From the NCBI GenBank assembly GCA_947365965.1, contig CANAZG010000004.1, positions 2,919 through 66,918 on the forward strand: a stretch of 64,000 bases of DNA. Reading direction: 5' to 3'. Source of the DNA: an uncultured Clostridia bacterium. Its GTDB lineage: Bacteria; Bacillota; Clostridia; Oscillospirales; Oscillospiraceae. Shown piece after piece: positions 1 through 39,542 of this stretch. The notes beneath the pieces are model-generated. The model was not told the origin of the DNA. It saw only the letters and a program-made list of their open reading frames with translations, and made no database searches. Every line of letters begins with the position of its first letter. The stretch's first letter is position 1. The translations under genes and the position numbers were made by a program.

Positions 1-673
1 TGTACTCCCTGTCCCCGGTCTCTGTCCCCTCCAGCCGGAACCGGCGCTGAAAGGCCAGGATCCGGGACTCCGGCGGCAGCAGCTCCCTCAGCTCCGGGGC
101 CAGCAGCCAGGAGCGGCACAGATAGGGCCGTCCGGCCCAGGCCGGGAAGCGGTCCGCGAAAAAGGACCGGGCCCAGTCCAGGGACCTGCCGCACCTGTCC
201 GGGGTCAGTGCCGCGTCCGAGGGGATATGGATGCTGATCCATGGCCCCCCGTCCCCGGTTCGCAGCTCGTACTCCAGCTCCCCCAGCCGGAACAGGGTCC
301 CGCTGATCTGCCGGGCCGTCCACCAGCCCCGGTCAAAGGCCGGAACGCCGGTGATCTGCCGGCACTCCTCCAGAAACCGGGGAAAACAGCCCATGGTGGC
401 GAAGTAGATCTGGTCCGGGATGCCCCGCTCCCCGTACCAGGAGTAAAGGTCCGCCCCGCAGGAGAGCATACAGGCCAGCAGCTTGTACTGCCGCCGGTCC
501 TCCCCCAGCAGGTCCTTCAGCAACGCCCGCCCCTGGGCCTCGGTGTCCATGTGCCGGAGCAGATCCAGGGCGGGGGTCAGCCGGTCCCGGTCTGTCTCCC
601 GCCAAAAGTCCAGCGCCGCCCACCGGGCCTCCTCCTGCAAGCGAATGCCTTGGCACAGCGCCGTCAGCTCCAT
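1..673 (-). CDS. Conserved hypothetical protein, possibly acyltransferase-like; 3' end lies beyond the window start
   Basis: ATG at 673 preceded by SD GAGGGAGGGGAG, 14 nt after the upstream SDR stop. The frame stays open to position 1, so it is absent from the stop-bounded ORF track. Own translation: MELTALCQGIRLQEEARWAALDFW...WWTARQISGTLFRLGELEYEL. The family call is from memory and weak. Confidence 0.5.
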   Translation of the reverse strand, partial: MELTALCQGIRLQEEARWAALDFWRETDRDRLTPALDLLRHMDTEAQGRALLKDLLGEDRRQYKLLACMLSCGADLYSWYGERGIPDQIYFATMGCFPRFLEECRQITGVPAFDRGWWTARQISGTLFRLGELEYELRTGDGGPWISIHIPSDAALTPDRCGRSLDWARSFFADRFPAWAGRPYLCRSWLLAPELRELLPPESRILAFQRRFRLEGTETGDREY

Positions 674-687
674 GGCTCCCCTCCCTC

Positions 688-1422
688 TTACAGAATAAAG
701 CCTCCGTCCGCCGTGAGGACCTGGCCGGTGATGAATCCCGCCTTGTCCCCGGCCAGGAAGGCCACCGCCTCCGCGATCTCCTCCGGCGCGCCCAGCCGGC
801 CCATGGGTGTCTCCTCCGCCAGGGCCTCCATGGTCTCCCGGCCCAGGACCTCCACCATGTCCGTGCGGATGACCCCAGGGGCCACGCAGTTGACCCGAAT
901 GCCAGAGGGGGCCAGCTCCATGGCCAGGGAGCGGGTGAGGCCGATGAGGGCCGCCTTGGTGGCGGAGTAGGCGGTCTCGCAGGAGGCGCCCCGCTGGCCC
1001 CAGATAGAGGAGATATTCACGATGGACCCCGTCTTCTCGTGGAGCATGTGGGGCAGCACCGCCTGGATGGTGTGGAAAGCGCCGTCCACGTTCACGGCAA
1101 AAATCCGCCGCCAGAAGTCCTCCTCAATGTCCTGGAACAGAGACTGCTGGGCTGTGCCCGCGTTGTTCACCAGCAGGGAGACCGGGCCGAAGGCCGTCTC
1201 CACCCGTGTGACAGCGGCGGTGATGGCCGCCCGGTCCGCCACATCGGCCTGGACCGCCAGGGCCTCATGCCCCTGGCTCCGCAGCTCGCTCTCCAGGGCA
1301 AGGGCCTGATCCCGGGCCTGGAGGTAGTTGATGCCCACGGACCAGCCCTCCGCCGCCAAACGGCGGACAACGGCCCGTCCAATGCCCCGGTTGCCGCCGG
1401 TGACAAACGCTGTTCTGCCCAT
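688..1422 (-). CDS. SDR family oxidoreductase (FabG-like 3-oxoacyl-ACP reductase)
   Basis: ORF track gives 688..1647. Start moved to ATG 1422 (MGRTAFVTGGNRGIG, Rossmann TGxxxGIG) with a GGAGGAG SD. NNAG and YSATK catalytic motifs are present. Confidence 0.85.
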   Translation of the reverse strand: MGRTAFVTGGNRGIGRAVVRRLAAEGWSVGINYLQARDQALALESELRSQGHEALAVQADVADRAAITAAVTRVETAFGPVSLLVNNAGTAQQSLFQDIEEDFWRRIFAVNVDGAFHTIQAVLPHMLHEKTGSIVNISSIWGQRGASCETAYSATKAALIGLTRSLAMELAPSGIRVNCVAPGVIRTDMVEVLGRETMEALAEETPMGRLGAPEEIAEAVAFLAGDKAGFITGQVLTADGGFIL

Positions 1423-1452: not shown

Positions 1453-1485
1453 GGCCTGTTTTTGCAGGCTGAAGTTAAGAAGTAA
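1453..1485 (+). pseudogene. Remnant of a Hol-Tox-type toxin ORF (last 10 codons only)
   Basis: GGCCTGTTTTTGCAGGCTGAAGTTAAGAAGTAA (GLFLQAEVKK*) aligns with GLFLQVYNCKKK* of the intact copies. An in-frame TAA lies 2 codons upstream and there is no start codon. Confidence 0.6.
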
Positions 1486-1493
1486 CCGCCTCC

Positions 1494-1592
1494 AGCTCCG
1501 ACGGTTACTTTTTTCATCACATAAGGACACCAGCCGCTTACCGGCAGTGCCCTTTCTATATTCAGTATAGCCGGATGAACCGGCCTTGTCAA
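1494..1592 (-). ncRNA. Third copy of the antitoxin-sRNA promoter and body, oriented toward the SDR gene
   Basis: On the minus strand: TTGACA (1587-1592), 17-nt spacer, TATACT (1564-1569), then GAAAGGGCACTGCCGG.., similar to the 37020 and 37390 units. The hairpin at 1477-1514 lacks a U-run in this orientation. Confidence 0.45.
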
Positions 1593-2803: not shown

Positions 2804-3976
2804 TTATCCCCGCAGCTCCATGAGCTTCTGCTTCAGCTCGCCCTCAATGCGGCCCAGCTCCACCTCGGCCTCTCGGCGCTTCTGGGCGCCGTCCCGCTGG
2901 ATCTGGATCACCTCGTCCAGGGTGGAGATGAGCTGCTGATTGGTGTGCTGGAGGGTCTCAATGTCGATGATGGCCCGCTCGGCCTCCTTGGCGGTGGCGA
3001 TGGTGCCCATCTTGAGCATGTCCGCGTTCTTCTTGAGCAGCTCGTTGGTGGCGTTGGTCACGGCGGTCTGGGCGGCAGTGGCCTTGCGGCTGTTCTCCAG
3101 GCCCAGGGCCAGCACCATCTGGCTCTTCCACAGGGGGATGGTGTTGACCAGGGAGGACTGGATCTTCTCCACCATCAGGGTGTCGTTATTCTGGAGCATC
3201 CTGGTCTGGGGCCCCATCTGGATGGACACCATGCGGGTCAGCTCCAGGTCGTGGAGCTTCTTGTCAAATCGGTCGCACATCTGAGTCAGATCGTTGTAGG
3301 CCTGGGCGTCCTCCTGCCGGCCGGAGGCCTCCGCCTTTTTGCGCAGCTCCTCCAGCTGTCCGGAGCGGACCTCCGCCAGCCGCTTCTTGCCGGCGATGAT
3401 ATACATGGTCAGCTCCTTGTAGTACTTCAGGTTCAGCTCATACATCTGGTCGAACATGGCGATGTCCTTCATGAGCACCACCTGATGCTGCTCCAGCTCC
3501 CGGGCGATCTTCTCCACATTGGCCTCGGCCTTGCCGTACTGGGCTTTCATGGCCTCCATCTTGTTTCCGGCCTTTTTGAAGAAGCCGAACAGGCCCTTTT
3601 CCTCCTCCTCCTGGCCGAAGCTCTTCAGCTCCACCACCAGACTGGAGAGGGTGTCGCCCACCTCCCCCAGATCCTTGGTGCGCACCTTGCTCAGGGCGCT
3701 CTCGGAGAAGGAGGCCACGCCCTTCTGGGCGGCCACGCCGTATTGCAGGATCAGCTGGGAGTCGTTGAGGTCGATCTTTTTGGAGAAGTCGTCCACCACC
3801 TTCTTCTCCTCCTCGTTGAGCATACTGTCGTCAATCACCACGGGCTCGGCCTTGGGCTTCTCCGGCTCCACGGCAGGGGCGGCGGGCTCAGCGCCCAGGG
3901 TGAGGGTGGGGATCTCCGCCTTGGCCGCGTCGGCGTTCAGGGTCAGCTGGGGCATCATGCCCTCCATGTCAGTCAT
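2804..3976 (-). CDS. TelA/YaaN family toxic-anion-resistance protein
   Basis: 390-aa ORF with an AAGGAGG SD 7 nt upstream. The sequence is coiled-coil rich and TelA-like. It is adjacent to an xpaC-like gene, as in Bacillus xpaC-yaaN. Confidence 0.8.
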   Translation of the reverse strand: MTDMEGMMPQLTLNADAAKAEIPTLTLGAEPAAPAVEPEKPKAEPVVIDDSMLNEEEKKVVDDFSKKIDLNDSQLILQYGVAAQKGVASFSESALSKVRTKDLGEVGDTLSSLVVELKSFGQEEEEKGLFGFFKKAGNKMEAMKAQYGKAEANVEKIARELEQHQVVLMKDIAMFDQMYELNLKYYKELTMYIIAGKKRLAEVRSGQLEELRKKAEASGRQEDAQAYNDLTQMCDRFDKKLHDLELTRMVSIQMGPQTRMLQNNDTLMVEKIQSSLVNTIPLWKSQMVLALGLENSRKATAAQTAVTNATNELLKKNADMLKMGTIATAKEAERAIIDIETLQHTNQQLISTLDEVIQIQRDGAQKRREAEVELGRIEGELKQKLMELRG

Positions 3977-34780: not shown

Positions 34781-35101
34781 CTAGGATTTCCGGTGAAACG
34801 CGCCCCCTATGCCGGTCCCAATGAGGACGACGACGGCATAAACCGGCCCATAGATCCAGGCGGATGAATTGTAATAGATGAAAATGGTGGGGATAAACAG
34901 CAGAAGGGCTGCGGCCGGAAGGATCAGGCTAAAGCCGATGCGCATCCCGCAGACAAGGGCCGAAATAAGCGCGGCCAGGGGCATGATGCACAGCATGAGA
35001 AGCATGGCCGATCCTGTATCCCTAGCCAGAAGGGGGAGAAGATAGAAATCCAGGCCCAGTATGACCACATAGGGCAAAAGAGACTTAAGATTTGTTTTCA
35101 T
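34781..35101 (-). CDS. Hypothetical integral membrane protein
   Basis: 106-aa ORF with about 4 TM helices. Followed by the terminator hairpin AAGCGGACAG/CTGTCCGCTT plus a T-run (about 34731-34760). Confidence 0.55.
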   Translation of the reverse strand: MKTNLKSLLPYVVILGLDFYLLPLLARDTGSAMLLMLCIMPLAALISALVCGMRIGFSLILPAAALLLFIPTIFIYYNSSAWIYGPVYAVVVLIGTGIGGAFHRKS

Positions 35102-35192
35102 ATTTCATCCTCTGATATAAGAACCTGCATTCATGGCCGGCGGGGTCCGGCGCAGCGCCGGACCCCGCCGTCATCTTATCAAACGCTTGCCC

Positions 35193-36617
35193 TTAATAGG
35201 CCAGCCGCTGCTCCAGCCAGGAGCGCAGCTCGCTGATGGGGATCCGATCCTGCTGCATGGAGTCCCGCTCCCGGATGGTTACGCAGTTGTCCGCCGGAGT
35301 CTTGTCGTCCCCCACGGTCTCAAAGTCCACGGTGATGCAGTAGGGCGTGCCCACCTCGTCCTGACGGCGGTAGCGCTTGCCGATGGAGCCCGCGTCGTCA
35401 TAGTCCACCATCCAGTACTTGGCCAGCTCTCCCTGGATCTCCAGGGCCTTTTCGCTGAGCTTCTTCGACAGGGGCAGCACCGCCGCCTTGAAGGGGGCCA
35501 GGGCCGGGTGGAGACGCAGAACCGTGCGCACGTCGTTCTTCTCCGGGTCCACCACCTCCTCGTCGTAGGCGTTGCACAGGAAGGCCAGCAGCATCCGCTC
35601 CACGCCCAGGGAGGGCTCGATAACATAGGGGATATACCGCTCGTTGGCCTCCTGGTCAAAGTACGTCAGATCCTTGCCGGAGGTGGTCTGGTGGGCGGTC
35701 AGGTCAAAGCTGGTCCGGCTGGCCACGCCCCACAGCTCGCCCCACTCCGTGAAGGGGAAGGCGAACTCAAAGTCCGTGGTGGCGTTGGAGTAGTGGCTCA
35801 GCTCCTCGGGATCGTGGTCCCGCAGCCGCAGGTTCTCCTCCTTGATGCCCAGATCCAGCAGCCACTGGCGGCAGAAGTTCTTCCAGTAGGCGAACCACTC
35901 CAGCTCCGTGCCCGGCTTGCAGAAGAACTCCAGCTCCATCTGCTCAAACTCCCGGGTGCGGAAGATGAAGTTGCCCGGGGTGATCTCGTTGCGGAAGCTC
36001 TTGCCGATCTGGCACACGCCGAAGGGCAGCTTCCGGCGGGTGGACCGCTGGACGTTGAGGAAGTTGGTAAAGATGCCCTGGGCGGTCTCCGGACGGAGAT
36101 AGACCGTGTTCTTCGCATCCTCCGTGACGCCCTGGAAGGTCTTGAACATGAGGTTGAACTTGCGGATATCGGTGAAATTGTGCTTGCCGCAGGTGGGACA
36201 GGGGATCTGGTGCTCGTCAATAAAAGCCTTCATCTCCTCCTGTGAGAAGGCGTCCACCGGCTTGCCCAGGTCAAAGTCGTGCTCCTGGGCCCAGTCCTCC
36301 ATCAGCTTGTCGGCCCGGAACCGCTCCTTGCACTCCTTGCAGTCCATCAGCGGGTCGGAAAAGCCGCCCACGTGGCCCGAGGCCACCCACACCTGGGGAT
36401 TCATGAGGATAGCCGCGTCCAGGCCCACGTTGTAGGGGTTCTCCTGGACGAACTTCTTCCACCAGGCCCGCTTGACGTTGTTTTTCAGCTCCACGCCCAG
36501 GGGGCCGTAGTCCCAGGTGTTGGCGAGGCCGCCGTAGATCTCGCTTCCGGCGAAGATAAAGCCCCGGCCCTTGCACAGGGCCACGATTTTTTCCATGGTC
36601 TTTTCGGTCTTCTTCAT
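35193..36617 (-). CDS. glyQS: Glycine--tRNA ligase (alpha2 GlyQS type)
   Basis: ORF track gives 35193..36800. Start moved to ATG 36617 ([41 protein letters not shown]). A T-box leader lies upstream. Confidence 0.9.
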
Positions 36618-36674
36618 AATGTCTAACGCTCCTTTTCCATACATAATATTGGCCGGAGGGGCGGAAAATAATCG

Positions 36675-36913
36675 CTGGCCAAAAATAAAACGCCCCGAGC
36701 CAGCCGGCTCAGGGCGAACAGTGACTGTCCGTGGTTCCACCTGATTTCGGGCCCGCAGGCCCGCACTCGCTGCCGGTAACGGTGGCTCCCGGCGGGGCAT
36801 TGCCTCCCCGCAGCTCAGAGACGCCCTTCCTCCCGCGCTTCACAGGGACTTGCACCAGCCGTCCCCTCTCTGACGATCCGCCCGGAAGTACTTCTTCTCT
36901 TCAATGCCTTTAT
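36675..36913 (-). promoter_or_regulatory. T-box leader (Gly, GGC specifier) of glyQS
   Basis: On the minus strand: AGUA and AGAGA stem I elements, specifier GGC, T-box AAATCAGGTGGAACCACGG (UGGA matches discriminator U73), terminator GCCCTGAGCCGGCTGGCTCGGGGC plus TTTTATTTTT. Confidence 0.85.
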
Positions 36914-36920
36914 GGGGGAC

Positions 36921-36949
36921 ACTTTATCATTTTTTTCTATAGATGTCAA
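36921..36949 (-). promoter_or_regulatory. Candidate promoter of the glyQS T-box leader
   Basis: On the minus strand: TTGACA, 17-nt spacer, TAAAGT. Confidence 0.6.
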
Positions 36950-37054
36950 GGGAAAGATTTGTTTTTCACGGAAATCCGGGGTTTTAGAAGAGAGCCTCCC
37001 CGTGAATTTCTGTTGGCACTTGACAAACGGGACCAATCCGGCTATACTAAAAAA

Positions 37055-37143
37055 AGAAAGGGCGCTGCCGGCAGACGGTTAGCCCCTCACTTTGGTAAAA
37101 GAAGTAACCGCGTGCTTGGAGGCGTGGCGGTTACTTCTTTTTG
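37055..37143 (+). ncRNA. Candidate antitoxin sRNA 1 (~90 nt)
   Basis: Promoter TTGACA (37020)-17-TATACT (37043). 14-bp terminator stem AAAGAAGTAACCGC/GCGGTTACTTCTTT plus a T-run (37098-37142). The 3' end is antisense to the last codons and the stop of the toxin ORF. Contains CCCCUC. Confidence 0.55.
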
Positions 37144-37223
37144 CAGTTATATACCTGTAAAAACAGGCCGCAAAGGCCAATGATAACCAGACAGAACTGG
37201 AACAGCTCTGAATATGTCAACAT
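37131..37223 (-). CDS. Candidate type I toxin, holin-like-toxin (Hol-Tox)-type 30-aa peptide, copy 1
   Basis: GGGAGGGGG SD, 4 nt, ATG. Peptide MLTYSELFQFCLVIIGLCGLFLQVYNCKKK (one TM helix plus a KKK tail). Below the ORF-track size cutoff. Promoter TTGCAG-17-TGgTATTCT at 37328-37356. Confidence 0.6.
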   Translation of the reverse strand: MLTYSELFQFCLVIIGLCGLFLQVYNCKKK

Positions 37224-37327
37224 GGCACCCCCTCCCTTCTTCGGAGGGGGCAGAAGTCCCCTCCGGGCTGGAGAGACTGTCCGCCTGCCAACTGGCAGCG
37301 CTGAAAGATATTTCTTTCCTGTCTCTC

Positions 37328-37356
37328 AGAATACCACACATTTCCACAAACTGCAA
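37328..37356 (-). promoter_or_regulatory. Candidate promoter of toxin mRNA 1
   Basis: On the minus strand: TTGCAG (37351-37356), 17-nt spacer, extended -10 TGgTATTCT (37328-37333). It leaves a ~98-nt structured 5' UTR containing an anti-SD CCCCCTCC. Confidence 0.55.
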
Positions 37357-37424
37357 TCTGTTTTGTCAGGAAATTTGCTCTGCATTCCCTTGACAAATGG
37401 GACCAATCCGGCTATACTAAAAAA

Positions 37425-37511
37425 GAAGGGCGTTGCCGGCAGACGGTTAGCCCCTCGCTGTGCGATAAGAAGTAACTGTTCGCTTGGAGGCTCGGCGGTT
37501 ACTTCTTTTTG
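37425..37511 (+). ncRNA. Candidate antitoxin sRNA 2 (~87 nt)
   Basis: Promoter TTGACA (37390)-17-TATACT (37413). 12-bp terminator stem (37467-37507) plus a T-run. The 3' end overlaps toxin ORF 2. Confidence 0.55.
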
Positions 37512-37591
37512 CAGTTATATACCTGTAGGAACAGGCCGCAAAGGCCAATGATAACAAGACAGTACTGAAACAGATCTGAATATGTCAACAT
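37499..37591 (-). CDS. Candidate type I toxin, Hol-Tox-type 30-aa peptide, copy 2
   Basis: Peptide MLTYSDLFQYCLVIIGLCGLFLQVYNCKKK. It differs from copy 1 by two conservative changes (E6D, F10Y) plus synonymous changes. Same SD. Promoter TTGCAA-17-TATGCT at 37696-37724. Confidence 0.6.
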   Translation of the reverse strand: MLTYSDLFQYCLVIIGLCGLFLQVYNCKKK

Positions 37592-37745
37592 GGCACCCCC
37601 TCCCTTCTTCGGAGAGGGCAGAAGTCCCCTCCGGGATGGAGAGGCTCTCCGCCTGCCAACTGGCAGCGCTGAAAGATATTTCTTTCCTGTCTCTCAGCAT
37701 ACCACACGTTTCCACAAATTGCAATCCATTATCTGCCCAATTCGC

Positions 37746-37777
37746 CAGAAAACCCCGCCATACGGCGGGGTTTTCTG
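37746..37777 (-). terminator. Terminator hairpin after the 72-aa minus-strand gene
   Basis: CAGAAAACCCCGCC / GGCGGGGTTTTCTG 14-bp stem with a 4-nt loop. U-rich on both strands. Confidence 0.7.
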
Positions 37778-37910
37778 GTGTGTGTTGTGTGTGTTTTAGG
37801 AGGGAGAAATTGCATCGGGCGTTACCCCTTTGCTGATGCTATATTACTGCATCTTTAAGAAGAAATCATGTACTTGCTGTAAACAAACTATGAACGTTTA
37901 CAGTCCTTTA

Positions 37911-38129
37911 TCAGGTTTCAGCGTCTTTCTCCGCTGCTTCCTCCGCATCCTCCCGCTCCATTTCACGAATCATGAAATCCTCTGCCTCGTCCATTGCCGT
38001 CTGTAAGAGCTCCCGGGCCTTCCCCACCTCCAGCAGATTTTCACTGTCCAGGATCGTCAATGCCCTGTCTATCTGGCACATGAGATACGCATAGCCGCGT
38101 TTGTACTTGCTGTTTTTATTGATCGCCAT
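37911..38129 (-). CDS. Small hypothetical acidic protein (72 aa)
   Basis: AAAGGAG SD. Lower-GC island. Divergent from the RHH gene across a 25-bp perfect inverted repeat. Confidence 0.55.
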   Translation of the reverse strand: MAINKNSKYKRGYAYLMCQIDRALTILDSENLLEVGKARELLQTAMDEAEDFMIREMEREDAEEAAEKDAET

Positions 38130-38143
38130 ATTTTTTCTCCTTT

Positions 38144-38210
38144 CTTTTGACTCAATTATAGCGTCAAATTTCCCCTTTTTGTGTTTTTGACGCTATAATT
38201 GAGTCAAAAG
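38144..38210. promoter_or_regulatory. Perfect 25-bp inverted repeat (operator-like) between divergent small genes
   Basis: CTTTTGACTCAATTATAGCGTCAAA (38144-38168), 17-nt spacer, TTTGACGCTATAATTGAGTCAAAAG (38186-38210). Each arm carries an outward-facing TATAAT. Confidence 0.7.
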
Positions 38211-38231
38211 AACGTCGAAGGAGCTCAGGGT

Positions 38232-38417
38232 ATGGATATTGACAAGGCCAGATTCACATTGCGAATCCCCAAAGAGATGCTGGAGAAATTCAGTTATATT
38301 GCCGGATATAATGGCCGTACCAAAAATAAAGAGCTGGAGCGGATGATAATCTCCCGTATCAAGGGCTTTGAAAACAAGCACGGAGAGATCACCATCCCAC
38401 CTGAGCATCAGGAGTAA
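38232..38417 (+). CDS. Arc/MetJ-type ribbon-helix-helix DNA-binding protein (61 aa)
   Basis: Start moved to ATG 38232 (GAAGGAG SD). FTLRIPKEMLEKFSYIAGYNGRTKNKELERMI fits a beta-strand plus two helices as in RHH proteins. Confidence 0.55.
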   Translation: MDIDKARFTLRIPKEMLEKFSYIAGYNGRTKNKELERMIISRIKGFENKHGEITIPPEHQE

Positions 38418-38446
38418 CCAACAGGCAATGCGGCAGATGACGGTAA

Positions 38447-38487
38447 ACGAACTGTAGGGGCGAGCGCTGCTCGCCCCTACAGTTCGT
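38447..38487. repeat. GC-rich hairpin (GTAGGGGCGAGC..GCTCGCCCCTAC family) acting as a bidirectional terminator
   Basis: 19-bp perfect stem ACGAACTGTAGGGGCGAGC / GCTCGCCCCTACAGTTCGT with loop GCT. The right arm overlaps the PPTase stop codon. Confidence 0.8.
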
Positions 38488-38962
38488 CCGCCCGAACGGT
38501 CCTGATCCTGATCTCCCTGGAGGGGCAGACCGTGACCACATACCCGGGCAGAAACCCCTCCAAGCGCCGGCACAGGGGGTCCGGCTCCGGGCCGCCCCCC
38601 ACCAGGGACCCGATCCCCAGGCCCTGCCGCTTGACCGTGGCCTCCCGGGCCGTCCACAGCCAGAAGAAGGCCTCGTCCTCCAGGTCCCCCGCCAGACGCC
38701 GGGGGGCCCGGCGCAGCAGCTCCACGTCCACCCCCACCGGCTGCCGGTCCAGGGCGCACACCGCGCCCCCCCGGCTGTGGCTGATGTTGAACCAGAGGTC
38801 CGGACAGTCCGGGAAATAGGGCCTCCCCCCCGGCTCCCGGAGGATCTCCGGCGTCCGCTTCAGCCCCAGCTCCCGCTCCAGGGCCAGATCCAGCAGCGCC
38901 CAGGCCAGGGTCCGCTCCCCGCTGGGCGCGCCTATGGCGCCGTAGACCGTCAGCTCCGTCAT
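38477..38962 (-). CDS. 4'-phosphopantetheinyl transferase (short Sfp-type)
   Basis: ORF track gives 38477..39088. Start moved to ATG 38962 (GGGGAGGAG SD). Motifs FNISHSRG, GVDVE and WTAREATVK. Confidence 0.75.
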   Translation of the reverse strand: MTELTVYGAIGAPSGERTLAWALLDLALERELGLKRTPEILREPGGRPYFPDCPDLWFNISHSRGGAVCALDRQPVGVDVELLRRAPRRLAGDLEDEAFFWLWTAREATVKRQGLGIGSLVGGGPEPDPLCRRLEGFLPGYVVTVCPSREIRIRTVRADEL

Positions 38963-39248
38963 GGCTCCTCCCCCCAGATCTGTCTCCATTTTGGGCATAA
39001 AAATACCCCGCAGAAGCCGTGTGAGTCCTGTTATAACCTGCACATGACTGGCAGGTGGGTCGCCTGCATCGTCCTTCACTGCTTCCAACTTCCAACCGCA
39101 GGTGGCAGCCGGGAGGCCTGCAAACCAGACGATGAACCAGCATCCCGAATAACAAAATGTGGGTTAAAAAAGACTCATCACGCACCCCGCAGGGTACTCT
39201 TTATTGTATGCCGCCGCCGGCTCCGCCGTGCGGACGCCGGAGAGGATT

Positions 39249-39542
39249 TTACTCCTCCTCGTCCTCAAAGAGCTCCGCCATAAACAGCTCGTAGACCTCC
39301 GTCAGCTCCTCCTCGCTGTCCAGGGTGGAGAGCAGCTCCTCTCCGCCCTCCTGGATGGACTTGAGGATCACCAGTCCGTAGTCGTCGCTCTCCTGGTCCA
39401 CGTCCTCCAGCACCGCAGGGAAAAAGGCCATGTAGGTGATCCCCTTGTGCTCCAGCACGTCCACCAGCTCCAGCTCTATGTCGTTGCCTTCCTCGTCCGT
39501 CACAGTGATGAACTCCGGGCCGTATTCCTCACTCACAGCCAA
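39249..39542 (-). CDS. DUF1292 family acidic protein
   Basis: 97 aa. ITVTDEEGNDIELELVDVLEHKGITYMAF is typical of DUF1292. Confidence 0.75.
   Translation of the reverse strand: MAVSEEYGPEFITVTDEEGNDIELELVDVLEHKGITYMAFFPAVLEDVDQESDDYGLVILKSIQEGGEELLSTLDSEEELTEVYELFMAELFEDEEE

Follow-up and report, generated by a model that had tools for sequence, protein, structure and literature searches.

Are the two tandem units next to glyQS modules of the type I toxin-antitoxin (TA) kind, and if so, to which family do they belong? The window, i.e., the whole 64,000-nt stretch of DNA that was analysed here, carries two units at 37019-37356 and 37389-37724, each of which contains a plus-strand promoter, a predicted sRNA of ~87 nt, a terminator hairpin, and a convergent ORF of 30 codons. 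The first-pass annotation had described two ~340-bp units of ~90% identity, and the measured identity is 91-93%: 91% between the repeats 37051-37350 and 37419-37718, 97% between the repeats 37019-37054 and 37389-37424, and 93% in the MAFFT alignment of unit 1 with unit 2. Three promoter-like sites were detected within 1.8 kb, two of which are the TTGACA-17-TATACT sites of units 1 and 2. Next to unit 2 lie a 72-aa gene and then an Arc-like gene, and glyQS is located on the other side of the array. The features of the array are as follows (SD, Shine-Dalgarno sequence).

Unit 1, 37020-37048, plus strand: promoter of the putative antitoxin sRNA (TTGACA 37020-25, 17-nt spacer, TATACT 37043-48; 11/12 consensus match)
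Unit 1, 37055-37142, plus strand: predicted antitoxin sRNA (~88 nt), its ends placed from the promoter and the T-run
Unit 1, 37097-37141, both strands: putative shared bidirectional terminator hairpin with perfect 15-nt arms (37097-37111/37127-37141)
Unit 1, 37131-37223, minus strand: putative toxin ORF of 30 aa, MLTYSELFQFCLVIIGLCGLFLQVYNCKKK
Unit 1, 37228-37236, minus strand: SD GGGAGGGGG, termed segment D, 4 nt (TGCC) ahead of the ATG
Unit 1, 37243-37251, minus strand: anti-SD segment C GCCCCCUCC, predicted partner of the SD or, alternatively, of segment B
Unit 1, 37256-37264, minus strand: G-rich segment B GGAGGGGAC of the leader fold
Unit 1, 37270-37277, minus strand: C/U-rich segment A GUCUCUCC, predicted partner of B, or of the SD in an alternative fold
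Unit 1, 37281-37302, minus strand: leader hairpin with the GCGCUGCC box, AGCGCUGCCAGUUGGCAGGCGG, similar in same-sense orientation to the 5' hairpin of the sRNA
Unit 1, 37303-37319, minus strand: first hairpin of the leader fold, GGAAAGAAAUAUCUUUC
Unit 1, 37328-37356, minus strand: putative toxin promoter (TTGCAG 37356-51, 17-nt spacer ending in TGG as an extended -10, TATTCT 37333-28)
Unit 2, 37390-37418, plus strand: promoter of the putative antitoxin sRNA, TTGACA-17-TATACT (11/12 consensus match)
Unit 2, 37425-37510, plus strand: predicted antitoxin sRNA (~86 nt; nhmmer 69.8 bits)
Unit 2, 37461-37513, both strands: putative shared terminator hairpin with 16-nt arms (37461-37476/37498-37513), 88% complementary
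Unit 2, 37499-37591, minus strand: putative toxin ORF of 30 aa, MLTYSDLFQYCLVIIGLCGLFLQVYNCKKK
Unit 2, 37596-37645, minus strand: predicted leader switch (SD 37596-37604, C 37611-37619, B 37624-37632, A 37638-37645)
Unit 2, 37696-37724, minus strand: putative toxin promoter TTGCAA-17-TATGCT with extended -10, from sequence
37743-37780: strong 17-bp hairpin that closes the array on the right, between unit 2 and the 72-aa gene

The modules had been placed next to the glyQS T-box, and the T-box was indeed found at 36707-36913 on the minus strand (119.7 bits). A functional link between the two was rejected: 20 other loci are without a T-box, and GlyRS, among the fetched loci, is a neighbour of the module only where the locus comes from the window's own species, so the adjacency is regarded as incidental.

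Both peptides quoted in the first-pass annotation were recovered exactly from the minus-strand 30-codon ORFs, and the strong SD is present as GGGAGGGGG-TGCC-ATG. The hydrophobic core of the toxin, FCLVIIGLCGLFLQV, has a Kyte-Doolittle mean of 2.59, and family peptides of 26-30 aa would, by sequence pattern, form one hydrophobic helix with a KKK tail. The ORFs of units 1 and 2 differ at six sites, four synonymous and two conservative (E6D, F10Y), in agreement with the description of only conservative or synonymous peptide changes between the copies. Across the family, pN/pS is 0.27 in the ORF frame versus 1.05 and 2.70 off-frame, the diversity at the three codon positions is 0.28/0.12/0.53, and more than 80 distinct sequences retain the start codon, SD, and stop, with the synonymous sites of AAA AAG AAG TAA (KKK-stop) frozen. 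Selection on the module, which had been argued from the two copies, is borne out by this in-frame ratio and by compensatory changes in the sRNA hairpin. Type I TA systems generally encode a hydrophobic peptide of <60 aa, and an ORF of 30 aa under purifying selection was found here. The expectation that such ORFs would be missed by standard annotation proved only partly right, because gene callers have found them in several metagenome assemblies, where they stand without a name or as 'hypothetical protein'. A protein database search with both window peptides concatenated as the query returned 15 proteins, which are over-extended ORF calls with the common core MLTYSELFQFCLVIIGI..KKK.

On the opposite strand, the proposed TTGACA-17-TATACT promoters are located at 37020-37048 and 37390-37418, each matching at 11/12 positions. 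The T-runs after the hairpins end at 37142 (unit 1) and 37510 (unit 2), and promoter, hairpin, and T-run together therefore predict sRNAs of ~88 and ~86 nt. This agrees with the ~90-nt sRNA with a strong terminator suggested earlier, apart from the stem, which is 15-16 bp rather than 12-14 bp. The predicted sRNA folds have z-scores of -3.9 (unit 1) and -3.7 (unit 2), and the unit 1 sRNA begins purine-rich with AGAAAGGG, followed by the conserved 5' hairpin (37059-37087), a linker that varies, and the terminator. In the family alignment of 79 distinct sRNA sequences (A3), the consensus structure has 19 pairs with 97.5% of cells paired, and seven of the pairs show compensatory changes; none of 500 shuffles reached the observed value, and slid controls were 27-57% paired. 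Within the terminator helix, compensatory changes were found at 6/11 pairs across the family. Its 3' arm (plus strand) is antisense to the AAA AAG AAG TAA codons of the toxin, so the KKK-stop codons form one arm of the hairpin, which confirms that the sRNA terminator lies antisense to the last codons and stop of the peptide. Searches against Rfam gave no match at E<=1 in the window region 35000-39500 and no gathering-level match on the sRNA in 20 other loci.

The convergent promoter is a constant part of the module. Each of the 88 intact ORFs that could be tested has a TTGACA-17-TATA[AC]T promoter facing it, and no testable intact toxin lacked one. In 82/88 modules the promoter is located 82-98 nt beyond the stop and matches at 11-12/12 positions, and two more match at 10/12. 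The remaining four (L014/15/16/20) were considered as modules without an antisense promoter, and this was rejected, as their promoter is present but displaced outward by ~45 nt, on the far side of an additional sRNA 5' hairpin. As a control, matches of >=11/12 occurred in 1/88 on the sense strand of the same windows and in 10/880 random windows.

Each peptide was also proposed to have its own promoter, and this could be traced to TTGCAG-17-TATTCT (37356-37328) and TTGCAA-17-TATGCT (37724-37696), both with an extended -10 (TGn) in addition. The pattern TTGnnn-16..18(TGn)-TAnnnT was found in 70/84 leaders versus 12/840 control windows. The sRNA promoters match the consensus at 11-12/12 positions versus mostly 7-8/12 plus the extended -10 for the toxin promoters, a predicted difference in strength that is suggestive of an excess of the antitoxin sRNA.

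The toxin leader is ~98 nt long, and its fold pairs the SD with CCCCCUCC in a 9-bp helix. According to the first-pass annotation, one stretch of this 5' UTR could pair either with the SD or with an upstream G-rich stretch; the SD is paired in the MFE fold, with segment B as the alternative partner. The whole toxin mRNA folds with z = -6.9 (unit 1) and -4.0 (unit 2), and the family leaders have a mean MFE z of -2.5. The SD core is paired across the family with a median probability of 0.99, and the mean of 0.92 versus 0.81 with the upstream sequence shuffled is only a modest contrast, because composition alone favours pairing. For the C:D helix, alignment-free pairing probabilities were used in place of column-based covariation, which was dropped because the register of C-run and G-run is ambiguous in alignment A6. 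The first leader hairpin is present in some subfamilies, is a hairpin of other sequence in others, and is absent in others. We also considered 5' processing of segment A as a way of freeing the SD and rejected it: truncated leaders keep the SD paired (mean P 0.85), and therefore thermodynamics do not favour release by processing.

The convergent RNAs were said to overlap at their 3' ends as in txpA/RatA and bsrG/SR4, and an overlap of ~50 nt was obtained in silico. The predicted 3' duplex has 50 intermolecular bp, with ddG of -48 and -60 kcal/mol. A cis-antisense RNA, which is expected of a type I TA system, is accordingly found in silico, with the promoter in 88/88 modules, a covarying sRNA, and this overlap. 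Another suggested contact, with the CCCCUC stretch of the sRNA acting as an anti-SD in trans, found no support, since the duplex energies of the cognate sRNA 5' domain with the leader are no better than those of shuffled or non-cognate pairs. For the sRNA 5' domain and the leader, RNAduplex gave a mean z of -0.33 versus dinucleotide shuffles and -35.6 kcal/mol for cognate versus -34.9 kcal/mol for non-cognate pairs, and the predicted site includes the SD core in only 29/79 cases. Trans pairing of these two regions was thus set aside as unsupported though not disproved, its energies being at chance level.

Regarding the origin of the peptide, the window peptides have no match to Pfam Hol_Tox (PF16935) at E<=10, and 10/51 family members match it at 14.9-19.7 bits (best E 6e-4), below the gathering cut-off of 23.3 bits. 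The family alignment (A4) was compared by hhalign with a PepG1 alignment (A5), whose members carry PF16935 and the name PepG1, and the two align with 93.7% probability (E 1.8e-7, 26 columns). The score of 31.8 exceeds the maximum of 16.3 in 200 column shuffles, and the start Met of the toxin falls on the Met inside the short form of PepG1. There is also a weak match to PDB 7NS1 (SprG1-31), the closest solved relative, which is one helix, and the sequence pattern fits a single alpha-helix with cationic C-terminal residues. The holin-like toxin type assigned earlier therefore holds as remote homology to PepG1/SprG1 and not as Pfam membership, and the toxin appears to be a relative of S. aureus PepG1/SprG1 (Pfam Hol_Tox) only in this remote sense. 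Searches of the window peptides against NCBIfam, Pfam, and PADLOC returned just weak 2TM/SLATT noise that reached no curated threshold, and no family member has an Fst/Ldr Pfam match.

A scan of 185,579 species-representative genomes led to the confirmation of 135 loci, 80 of which were kept, and a genome often holds several copies at dispersed sites. Conservation of the small ORF in relatives, which had been set as a test, is evident from these 135 loci and from the in-frame pN/pS of 0.27. Nearly all kept loci (78/80) are titled Oscillospiraceae, Oscillibacter, Dysosmobacter, Intestinimonas, Pseudoflavonifractor, Vermiculatibacterium, Clostridia or Clostridiales, and the other two are contigs from a single bin that bears the label Bacteroidaceae. 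Another 38 loci were found on IMG/VR viral contigs, 37 of which carry the sRNA. Tandem arrays occur at 15/85 loci, and one single variant is present on 677 public contigs. Vermiculatibacterium agrestimuris DSM 112226, Oscillospiraceae bacterium 50-16, and CM18GR_63 are cultured carriers.

The two halves of the module decay unequally. At least six full-length sRNA copies retain only a 5'-truncated toxin remnant, among them one in L002, a strain of the window's own species, and one in the window itself:

1477-1592, minus strand: third, orphan copy (TTGACA 1592-1587, 17-nt spacer, TATACT 1569-1564; sRNA-like sequence 1557-1477)

This copy was detected by nhmmer with 42.2 bits (E 2e-11); its terminator T-run is broken, and a toxin 3' remnant, ...GLFLQAEVKK*, is all that is left on the opposite strand. 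A short-chain dehydrogenase gene (Pfam adh_short) starts at 1422 on the same strand as the orphan sRNA, which apparently reads into it.

With coding selection, conserved promoters, a covarying sRNA, SD sequestration, complementarity, decay asymmetry, and homology to PepG1 all observed in silico, each unit is probably a type I TA module of an unnamed Oscillospiraceae-wide family, the toxin of which is remotely related to PepG1/SprG1-TxpA (Hol_Tox). Transcription, toxicity, the involvement of an RNase, and the physiological role of the module are what we infer for it. In the proposed mechanism, the weak non-consensus promoter with its extended -10 would produce a toxin mRNA of ~230 nt from the minus strand, and the ~98-nt leader would lock the SD through the adjacent C-rich segment (C:D) or the upstream one (A:D), so that the peptide would barely be translated. 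The near-consensus convergent promoter would produce the sRNA of ~87 nt, whose terminator hairpin would be the reverse complement of the last codons, the stop, and the mRNA's own terminator, so that the two RNAs would be perfectly complementary over ~50 nt at their 3' ends. Judging from SprF1/sprG1, RatA/txpA, and SR4/bsrG, the duplex may expose the toxin mRNA to degradation by a double-strand-specific RNase, and it might also reinforce the translational block. When the sRNA is lost, the peptide would be made and would damage the membrane. Several points are counted against this explanation. The modelled SD sequestration is very strong and does not open upon in silico removal of segment A, so that any translation of the peptide is hard to account for, and the overlap amounts to about one hairpin, whose intramolecular fold would compete kinetically with the duplex. 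The window peptides stay below every curated family threshold, and the best-conserved part of the sRNA, its 5' hairpin, is not within the overlap and is complementary to the leader only at chance level.

Alternatively, the sRNA may be the main functional product, as a trans-acting regulator or an SprF1-like ribosome binder via its 5' domain, and the toxin secondary and often dispensable, which we consider rather unlikely. The 5' hairpin is the part of the sRNA most conserved in sequence and is located outside the overlap with the toxin mRNA, and SprF copies too have a conserved region outside the complementary stretch (PMC6393307). The purine-rich 5' end AGAAAGGG also fits the description of SprF1 (PMC8309996), and orphan sRNAs persist with intact near-consensus promoters, one of them directly upstream of the dehydrogenase gene. 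However, the predicted duplex of 5' domain and leader is at chance level, and most copies (93 sRNA matches) still have their intact ORF, which is under purifying selection. A leading role of the sRNA is compatible with a TA module in the form of a dual function.

The same 5' domain copies, in the same sense, the 5' regulatory segment ('A') of the leader itself, and the profile of the domain was recovered in 72/83 leaders in sense, in 0/83 in antisense, and in 19/415 control windows. The domain (AGAAAGGG end, GCGCUGCC hairpin, GCCCCUC tract) might mimic segment 'A' and add a second control layer, an idea that we hold to be doubtful. The mimic could substitute for A in trans and keep the SD locked, compete with the leader for a shared protein, RNase, or DNA-binding factor, or bind ribosomes like SprF1; if true, it would explain the persistence of orphan sRNAs with perfect promoters.

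It is improbable that the peptide is a non-toxic small membrane protein, e.g., a regulator or subunit of a membrane complex, that is tuned by a cis-antisense RNA outside any addiction module. Its matches in curated libraries are only weak ones to membrane helices (SLATT_6, PetG, SPT_ssu-like), and the window copies have an ordinary chromosomal context, both as this alternative would have it. But the module is multi-copy, dispersed, tandem, and prophage-borne, which is unusual for a housekeeping subunit; its predicted repression is redundant, combining a locked SD with a near-consensus antisense promoter; the sRNA outlives the truncated ORF, and the testable intact ORFs all keep the convergent promoter; and the peptide has an order-specific similarity to PepG1, a proven toxin.

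A phage holin-type lysis protein, with the units as remnants of prophage lysis cassettes, is a very unlikely explanation. It would fit the 38 loci on predicted viral contigs and the 28/51 members that match phrog_3488 'holin' (best E 5.6e-4; window peptide E 0.011), but these matches are weak, and in length and register the profile is that of PepG1, a toxin of type I commonly mis-annotated as 'holin-like'. No phage or lysis genes were found beside the window units, blastn of one unit against plasmid and phage collections gave no match, and the antisense sRNA and shared terminator that accompany every module are foreign to lysis cassettes. Scarcely credible, finally, is a reading of the units as repeats without coding function (e.g., a miniature mobile element, or duplicated terminators/promoters) in which the ORF is fortuitous: the copies are dispersed and tandem, GC content is 0.50 in the units versus 0.62 in the window, and a similar motif recurs in inverted orientation at both unit ends, but these motifs lie within transcribed regions, no target-site duplications or terminal repeats were seen at the unit boundaries, start codon, SD, and stop are kept throughout the distinct family sequences, and the coding signature is confined to the ORF frame, the pN/pS values there and off-frame refuting this as the sole explanation.

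As a probable type I TA module, the unit is best compared with sprG/SprF of S. aureus. Both have a toxin of ~30 aa, presumably a single helix here too, that is polar at the N-terminus (M-x-T-x-S...QF) and cationic at the C-terminus, and a convergent antisense RNA (predicted here) over the toxin 3' end, with an overlap of ~50 nt here and 57-97 nt for SprG2/3 (PMC6393307, PMC8309996). Moreover, like SprF, the predicted antitoxin is purine-rich at its 5' end and is conserved in a region beyond the overlap, and either system occurs more than once in a genome, in part on prophages or islands (PMC6393307, PMC8309996). Unlike sprG/SprF, the present peptides fall below the Pfam gathering cut-off, the sRNA is without similarity to any Rfam family, the overlap is about a single shared terminator hairpin including the KKK-stop codons, the leader contains a four-segment C/G-rich switch, and the host clade is Clostridia (Oscillospiraceae). 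SprG1 itself was discovered via homology to TxpA (PMC8309996).

The txpA/RatA and bsrG/SR4 systems of B. subtilis are likewise convergent pairs with a 3' RNA overlap and a sequestered SD, often prophage-associated. TxpA has 59 aa and BsrG 38 aa, their antitoxins are ~180-220 nt and the overlaps ~75-120 nt, all longer than here. RNase III dependence has been shown for both systems, and we infer it for the present modules. The par system (fst/RNA II, E. faecalis pAD1) shares with the present modules convergent transcripts and one common bidirectional terminator. In par, both RNAs carry repeated sequence elements close to their 5' ends. These repeats are complementary and constitute the interaction site, whereas here the motif is same-sense with complementarity at chance; in addition, our peptides lack an Fst match in Pfam, so only the shared bidirectional terminator is similar. 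The Fst/RNAII interaction site is outside the overlap (T1TAdb, PMC8594479).

Among Clostridia, the CD/RCd modules of C. difficile are alike by description, with a clostridial host and small hydrophobic Lys-tailed toxins; those toxins are 30-56 aa long, hydrophobic in their N-terminal part and rich in Lys at the C-terminus, and prophages frequently carry them (PMC6563280). According to a 2019 review, homology searches until then had turned up hardly any known type I toxins in Clostridia besides C. difficile, and the present family therefore lies outside that picture (PMC6563280). A full-text literature search pairing 'type I toxin-antitoxin' with 'Oscillospiraceae', a group of abundant and poorly studied gut anaerobes, found nothing related.

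The concept of type I TA systems is unchanged by this family. What is new is an sRNA absent from Rfam, together with peptides that are unnamed or called 'hypothetical protein', at no fewer than 135 species-representative loci, which would link the staphylococcal and bacillary Hol_Tox toxins to Clostridia and gives a rule by which hundreds of genomes and prophages can readily be annotated. In these modules, the same 12 bases serve as the Lys tail and stop codon of the predicted toxin and as the terminator of the opposing RNA. Within the window's own species, strains carry one copy, one copy plus a remnant, or two copies, and these copy numbers are candidate strain-level markers.

The window carries two tandem type I toxin-antitoxin modules and an orphan antitoxin, for which we infer transcription, toxicity and the mechanism of decay. 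The core of this reading, the tandem modules proposed in the first-pass annotation, holds through a coding ORF, a conserved convergent sRNA gene, overlap of the two RNAs at their 3' ends and an asymmetry in how the modules decay. The units, earlier judged roughly 90% identical, share 93% identity by MAFFT, similarity being lost beyond ~37019-37356 and ~37389-37724, and contain a 300-nt direct repeat (37051-37350 / 37419-37718, 91%). They lie 368-370 nt apart, with a promoter-covering stretch of 36 nt that is 97% identical, and are composed of the following parts:

37020-37048 (unit 1), plus strand: sRNA promoter TTGACA-17-TATACT, present in each unit; 1.8 kb of sequence has just three promoter-like sites, these two included
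~48 nt 3' of the plus-strand promoter: hairpin and T-run, with perfect 15-nt arms in unit 1 and 16-nt arms at 88% in unit 2
37131-37223 and 37499-37591, minus strand: toxin ORFs of 30 codons
5' of the toxin ORFs, both units: SD context GGGAGGGGG-TGCC-ATG
both units: toxin promoter TTGCAG/TTGCAA-17-TATTCT/TATGCT, with an extended -10 TGn

All of these agree with the earlier description, including the plus-strand promoter followed by a strong terminator, the minus-strand ORFs with their strong SD and own promoter, and the translations, which are identical to the peptides quoted there. Folding gave z of -3.9 and -3.7 for the predicted sRNAs, 88 and 86 nt long, and of -6.9 and -4.0 for the predicted toxin mRNAs; in the latter folds, the SD is one strand of a 9-bp helix whose partner is CCCCCUCC. 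The G+C content is 50% in the module region (37015-37730) and 62% in the whole window.

Codon comparison indicates that the small ORF is coding. Among 77 distinct 20-codon segments, diversity per codon position is 0.276/0.123/0.530, and the ORF frame has a pN/pS of 0.27, the other two frames 1.05 and 2.70. The window copies differ by four synonymous and two conservative changes, the pattern noticed at first reading. The suggested holin-like-toxin type stood only as remote homology to Hol_Tox (PF16935): the window peptides matched no family in Pfam or NCBIfam, and 10 of 51 family members matched Hol_Tox at 14.9-19.7 bits, below Pfam's own criterion for membership (cut-off 23.3). Weak matches to phrog_3488 "holin" were found in 28 of the 51, and a PDB profile search gave a marginal match to 7NS1, a single alpha-helix identified in the literature as SprG1, a type I toxin of S. 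aureus, in its 31-aa form (PMC8309996). The SprG1 sequence as query retrieves database proteins named "type I toxin-antitoxin system toxin PepG1" that carry PF16935. Profile-profile comparison of the family with PepG1, the toxin of sprG1, gave 93.7% probability (E 1.8e-7, 26 columns) and a score of 31.8 against at most 16.3 in 200 column-shuffled controls; the start Met of the family pairs with the internal Met that begins the short PepG1 form. Based on this match and the sub-cut-off Pfam scores, the family is treated as a remote relative of Hol_Tox/PepG1, related at long range to SprG/TxpA.

A convergent sRNA gene accompanies the peptide throughout the family. Of 88 modules with sufficient flank, 82 have an opposite-strand TTGACA-17-TATAAT promoter matching at 11-12 of 12 positions, its -10 ending 82-98 nt past the toxin stop codon (10/12 in two more), versus 1/88 for the same windows on the sense strand and 10/880 random windows. 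The promoter lies ~45 nt farther out in four loci (L014, L015, L016 and L020), because their sRNA has an extra ~45-nt hairpin between promoter and conserved 5' domain (about 3090-3240, antisense strand). The toxin leader has a counterpart to this extra hairpin in its own optional first one. Alignment of the 79 distinct predicted sRNAs was good and brought out three shared elements: a 5' hairpin GGGCGCUGCCGG-loop-CGGUYAGCCCC, then a linker that varies, then the terminator GAAGUAACCGC...GCGGUUACUUCUUUUU. The RNAalifold consensus has 19 pairs, with 97.5% of cells paired and both-side changes at seven pairs; none of 500 shuffles reached these values, and slid controls had 27-57% of cells paired. 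The 5' hairpin is conserved chiefly in sequence, and the terminator helix shows compensatory changes at 6 of 11 pairs, in line with the earlier remark that the hairpin keeps its pairing. Rfam returned nothing for the sRNA in the window at E<=1, nor at gathering level in 20 other loci, and the antitoxin RNA is unclassified.

As had been stated, the 3' arm and U-tract of the terminator lie antisense to the toxin's final codons and stop. The ORF ends in AAA AAG AAG TAA in 71 of 83 distinct ORFs, and the minor-codon fraction at the three tail Lys codons is 0, 0 and 0.05 (0.16-0.44 at the other two-fold codons); in TGA-stop members the opposite terminator arm is altered to match. The tail bases are thus doubly constrained, by peptide and by RNA structure.

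With the inferred ends, the two RNAs are perfectly complementary over 50 nt (37093-37142 in unit 1, 37461-37510 in unit 2), and co-folding gave 50 intermolecular pairs (ddG -48 and -60 kcal/mol), with both the 5' hairpin of the sRNA and the SD helix preserved in the dimer. This is the 3'-end geometry of SprF/sprG, RatA/txpA and SR4/bsrG, the last two already named as parallels, in which binding of the antitoxin at the toxin 3' end favours decay (PMC6393307, PMC8309996). An anti-SD-like action of the sRNA CCCCUC stretch found no support: 79 cognate pairs were no better than shuffled or non-cognate controls.

The asymmetry of decay is evident from an nhmmer sRNA profile, which found full-length sRNA copies with just a 5'-truncated toxin remnant (among them L002:4707-4801, window 1477-1557 and the fetched loci L084, L028, L031, L081 and L041), while every testable intact toxin ORF has its convergent promoter. 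Loss of the toxin with the antitoxin kept, and never the reverse, is as predicted by selection against an unneutralised toxin. The window example, 35 kb from the tandem units, comprises:

1477-1592, minus strand: third, orphan sRNA copy with a perfect TTGACA-17-TATACT promoter, 5' hairpin and terminator stem
688-1422, minus strand: short-chain dehydrogenase gene (adh_short, E 1e-61), starting ~55 nt downstream of the orphan

Its opposite-strand toxin is cut down to ...GLFLQAEVKK* and its terminator T-run is interrupted (CTTCTTAACTTC); since the dehydrogenase gene follows closely on the same strand, its transcription may now start from the orphan promoter. A different strain of the window's species has a reduced unit 2 (L002:4608-4835): toxin promoter, leader and the initial nine codons are gone, and the sRNA gene and toxin 3' half are fused directly to the array-closing hairpin. 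This partial unit, together with strains having a single unit, shows that the locus varies at strain level.

The leader layout is conserved and comprises, from 5' to 3', a promoter, an optional first hairpin that varies in sequence, a GCGCUGCC-box hairpin and four alternating segments, A (C-rich), B (G-rich), C (C-rich) and D (the SD). The promoter TTGC[ATC]T-17-(TGn)TATnCT lies 82-136 nt 5' of the ATG and was found in 70/84 leaders versus 12/840 controls. Two folds recur in the family, A:B with C:D, or B:C nested within A:D, and the SD is paired in both (core pairing probability median 0.99, mean 0.92; mean 0.81 with upstream sequence shuffled). Opening of the SD by removal of segment A, with the sRNA replacing A in trans, is unsupported by thermodynamics, as truncated leaders keep the SD paired (0.85). 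The SD seems never to open, which is one of two puzzling details.

The other is that the toxin leader, in its 5' part, resembles the 5' domain of the sRNA in the same sense, which makes the motifs of these convergent RNAs inverted repeats on the DNA:

37059-37087 (plus) and 37270-37302 (minus); 37429-37457 (plus) and 37638-37670 (minus): same-sense motif GCGCUGCC..GGCAG.CGG..AG.C.CUC

The sRNA 5'-domain profile matched 72/83 leaders in sense (each weakly, median 6.7 bits), 0/83 in antisense and 19/415 control windows. Candidate explanations are a shared protein or RNase binding site, an operator downstream of both promoters, and an inverted duplication; by analogy with SprF1, the purine-rich sRNA 5' end might also bind ribosomes.

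The units are part of a large, unnamed family of Oscillospiraceae and prophages. The exact window peptides recur in metagenome contigs, flanked, as in the window, by glyQS on one side and the 72-aa and Arc-like genes on the other, in one copy (L001, L006), one plus a partial copy (L002) or two (L003-L005). A protein search with the two peptides joined gave 15 proteins sharing MLTYSELFQFCLVIIGI...KKK, all over-extended calls running through the leader. Scanning 185,579 genomes, one per species, with the trimmed peptide alignment as query yielded 135 confirmed loci, of which 80 were kept; apart from two, these carry the titles Oscillospiraceae, Oscillibacter, Dysosmobacter, Intestinimonas, Pseudoflavonifractor, Vermiculatibacterium or unclassified Clostridia/Clostridiales, the exceptions being contigs from a single bin labelled Bacteroidaceae. 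Several genomes hold at least five dispersed copies. HMM search in all reading frames of the scanned loci gave 108 peptide matches, falling into subfamilies MLTYSELF.., MITYSELF.., MTTSEFYQF..TIYYNKKK, MSTSEVLQL.. and MTTSELFQF.., across which the CLVIIG core is near-invariant and the KKK tail is shared. IMG/VR viral contigs added 38 loci, 37 with the sRNA. Tandem arrays occur in 15/85 loci at 332-433 nt spacing; according to the T1TAdb paper (PMC8594479), tandem repeats were one criterion by which Fozo et al. searched for type I loci. In public sources the peptides, one variant of which is present on 677 contigs, are unnamed or "hypothetical protein". The modules bring no new concept of type I systems, and the family is of value for annotation and study of gut Clostridia. 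In a Clostridiales MAG, a skipping-rope RNA (RF02924, 47 bits; L031:2137-2234, minus) is found within a few hundred bases of both a module and an orphan sRNA.

The neighbourhood of the units contains:

36707-36913, minus strand: glyQS T-box (RF00230, 119.7 bits)
36921-36949, minus strand: T-box promoter TTGACA-17-TAAAGT with TG
37911-38129, minus strand: 72-aa ORF, divergent from the Arc-like gene, no family match
38135-38219: 34-nt inverted repeat, 91% complementary, 17-nt gap, spanning the start of the Arc-like gene
38199-38417, plus strand: Arc-like ribbon-helix-helix gene, 72 aa (PF03869, E 1.3e-5)
39001-39198, minus strand: 6S RNA (RF00013, 82.1 bits), 1.3 kb from the modules

The mechanically listed 330-aa ORF at 38193-39185 (minus) is probably no gene, since it overlaps the 6S RNA. 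The T-box promoter diverges from the sRNA promoter of unit 1, with only ~70 nt between them. The analysis found no sign of coupling between T-box and module, and among fetched loci GlyRS adjoins the module solely where the locus comes from the window's own species. The inverted repeat is probably an autoregulated operator. In the fetched locus L008, too, the module has an Arc homologue nearby.
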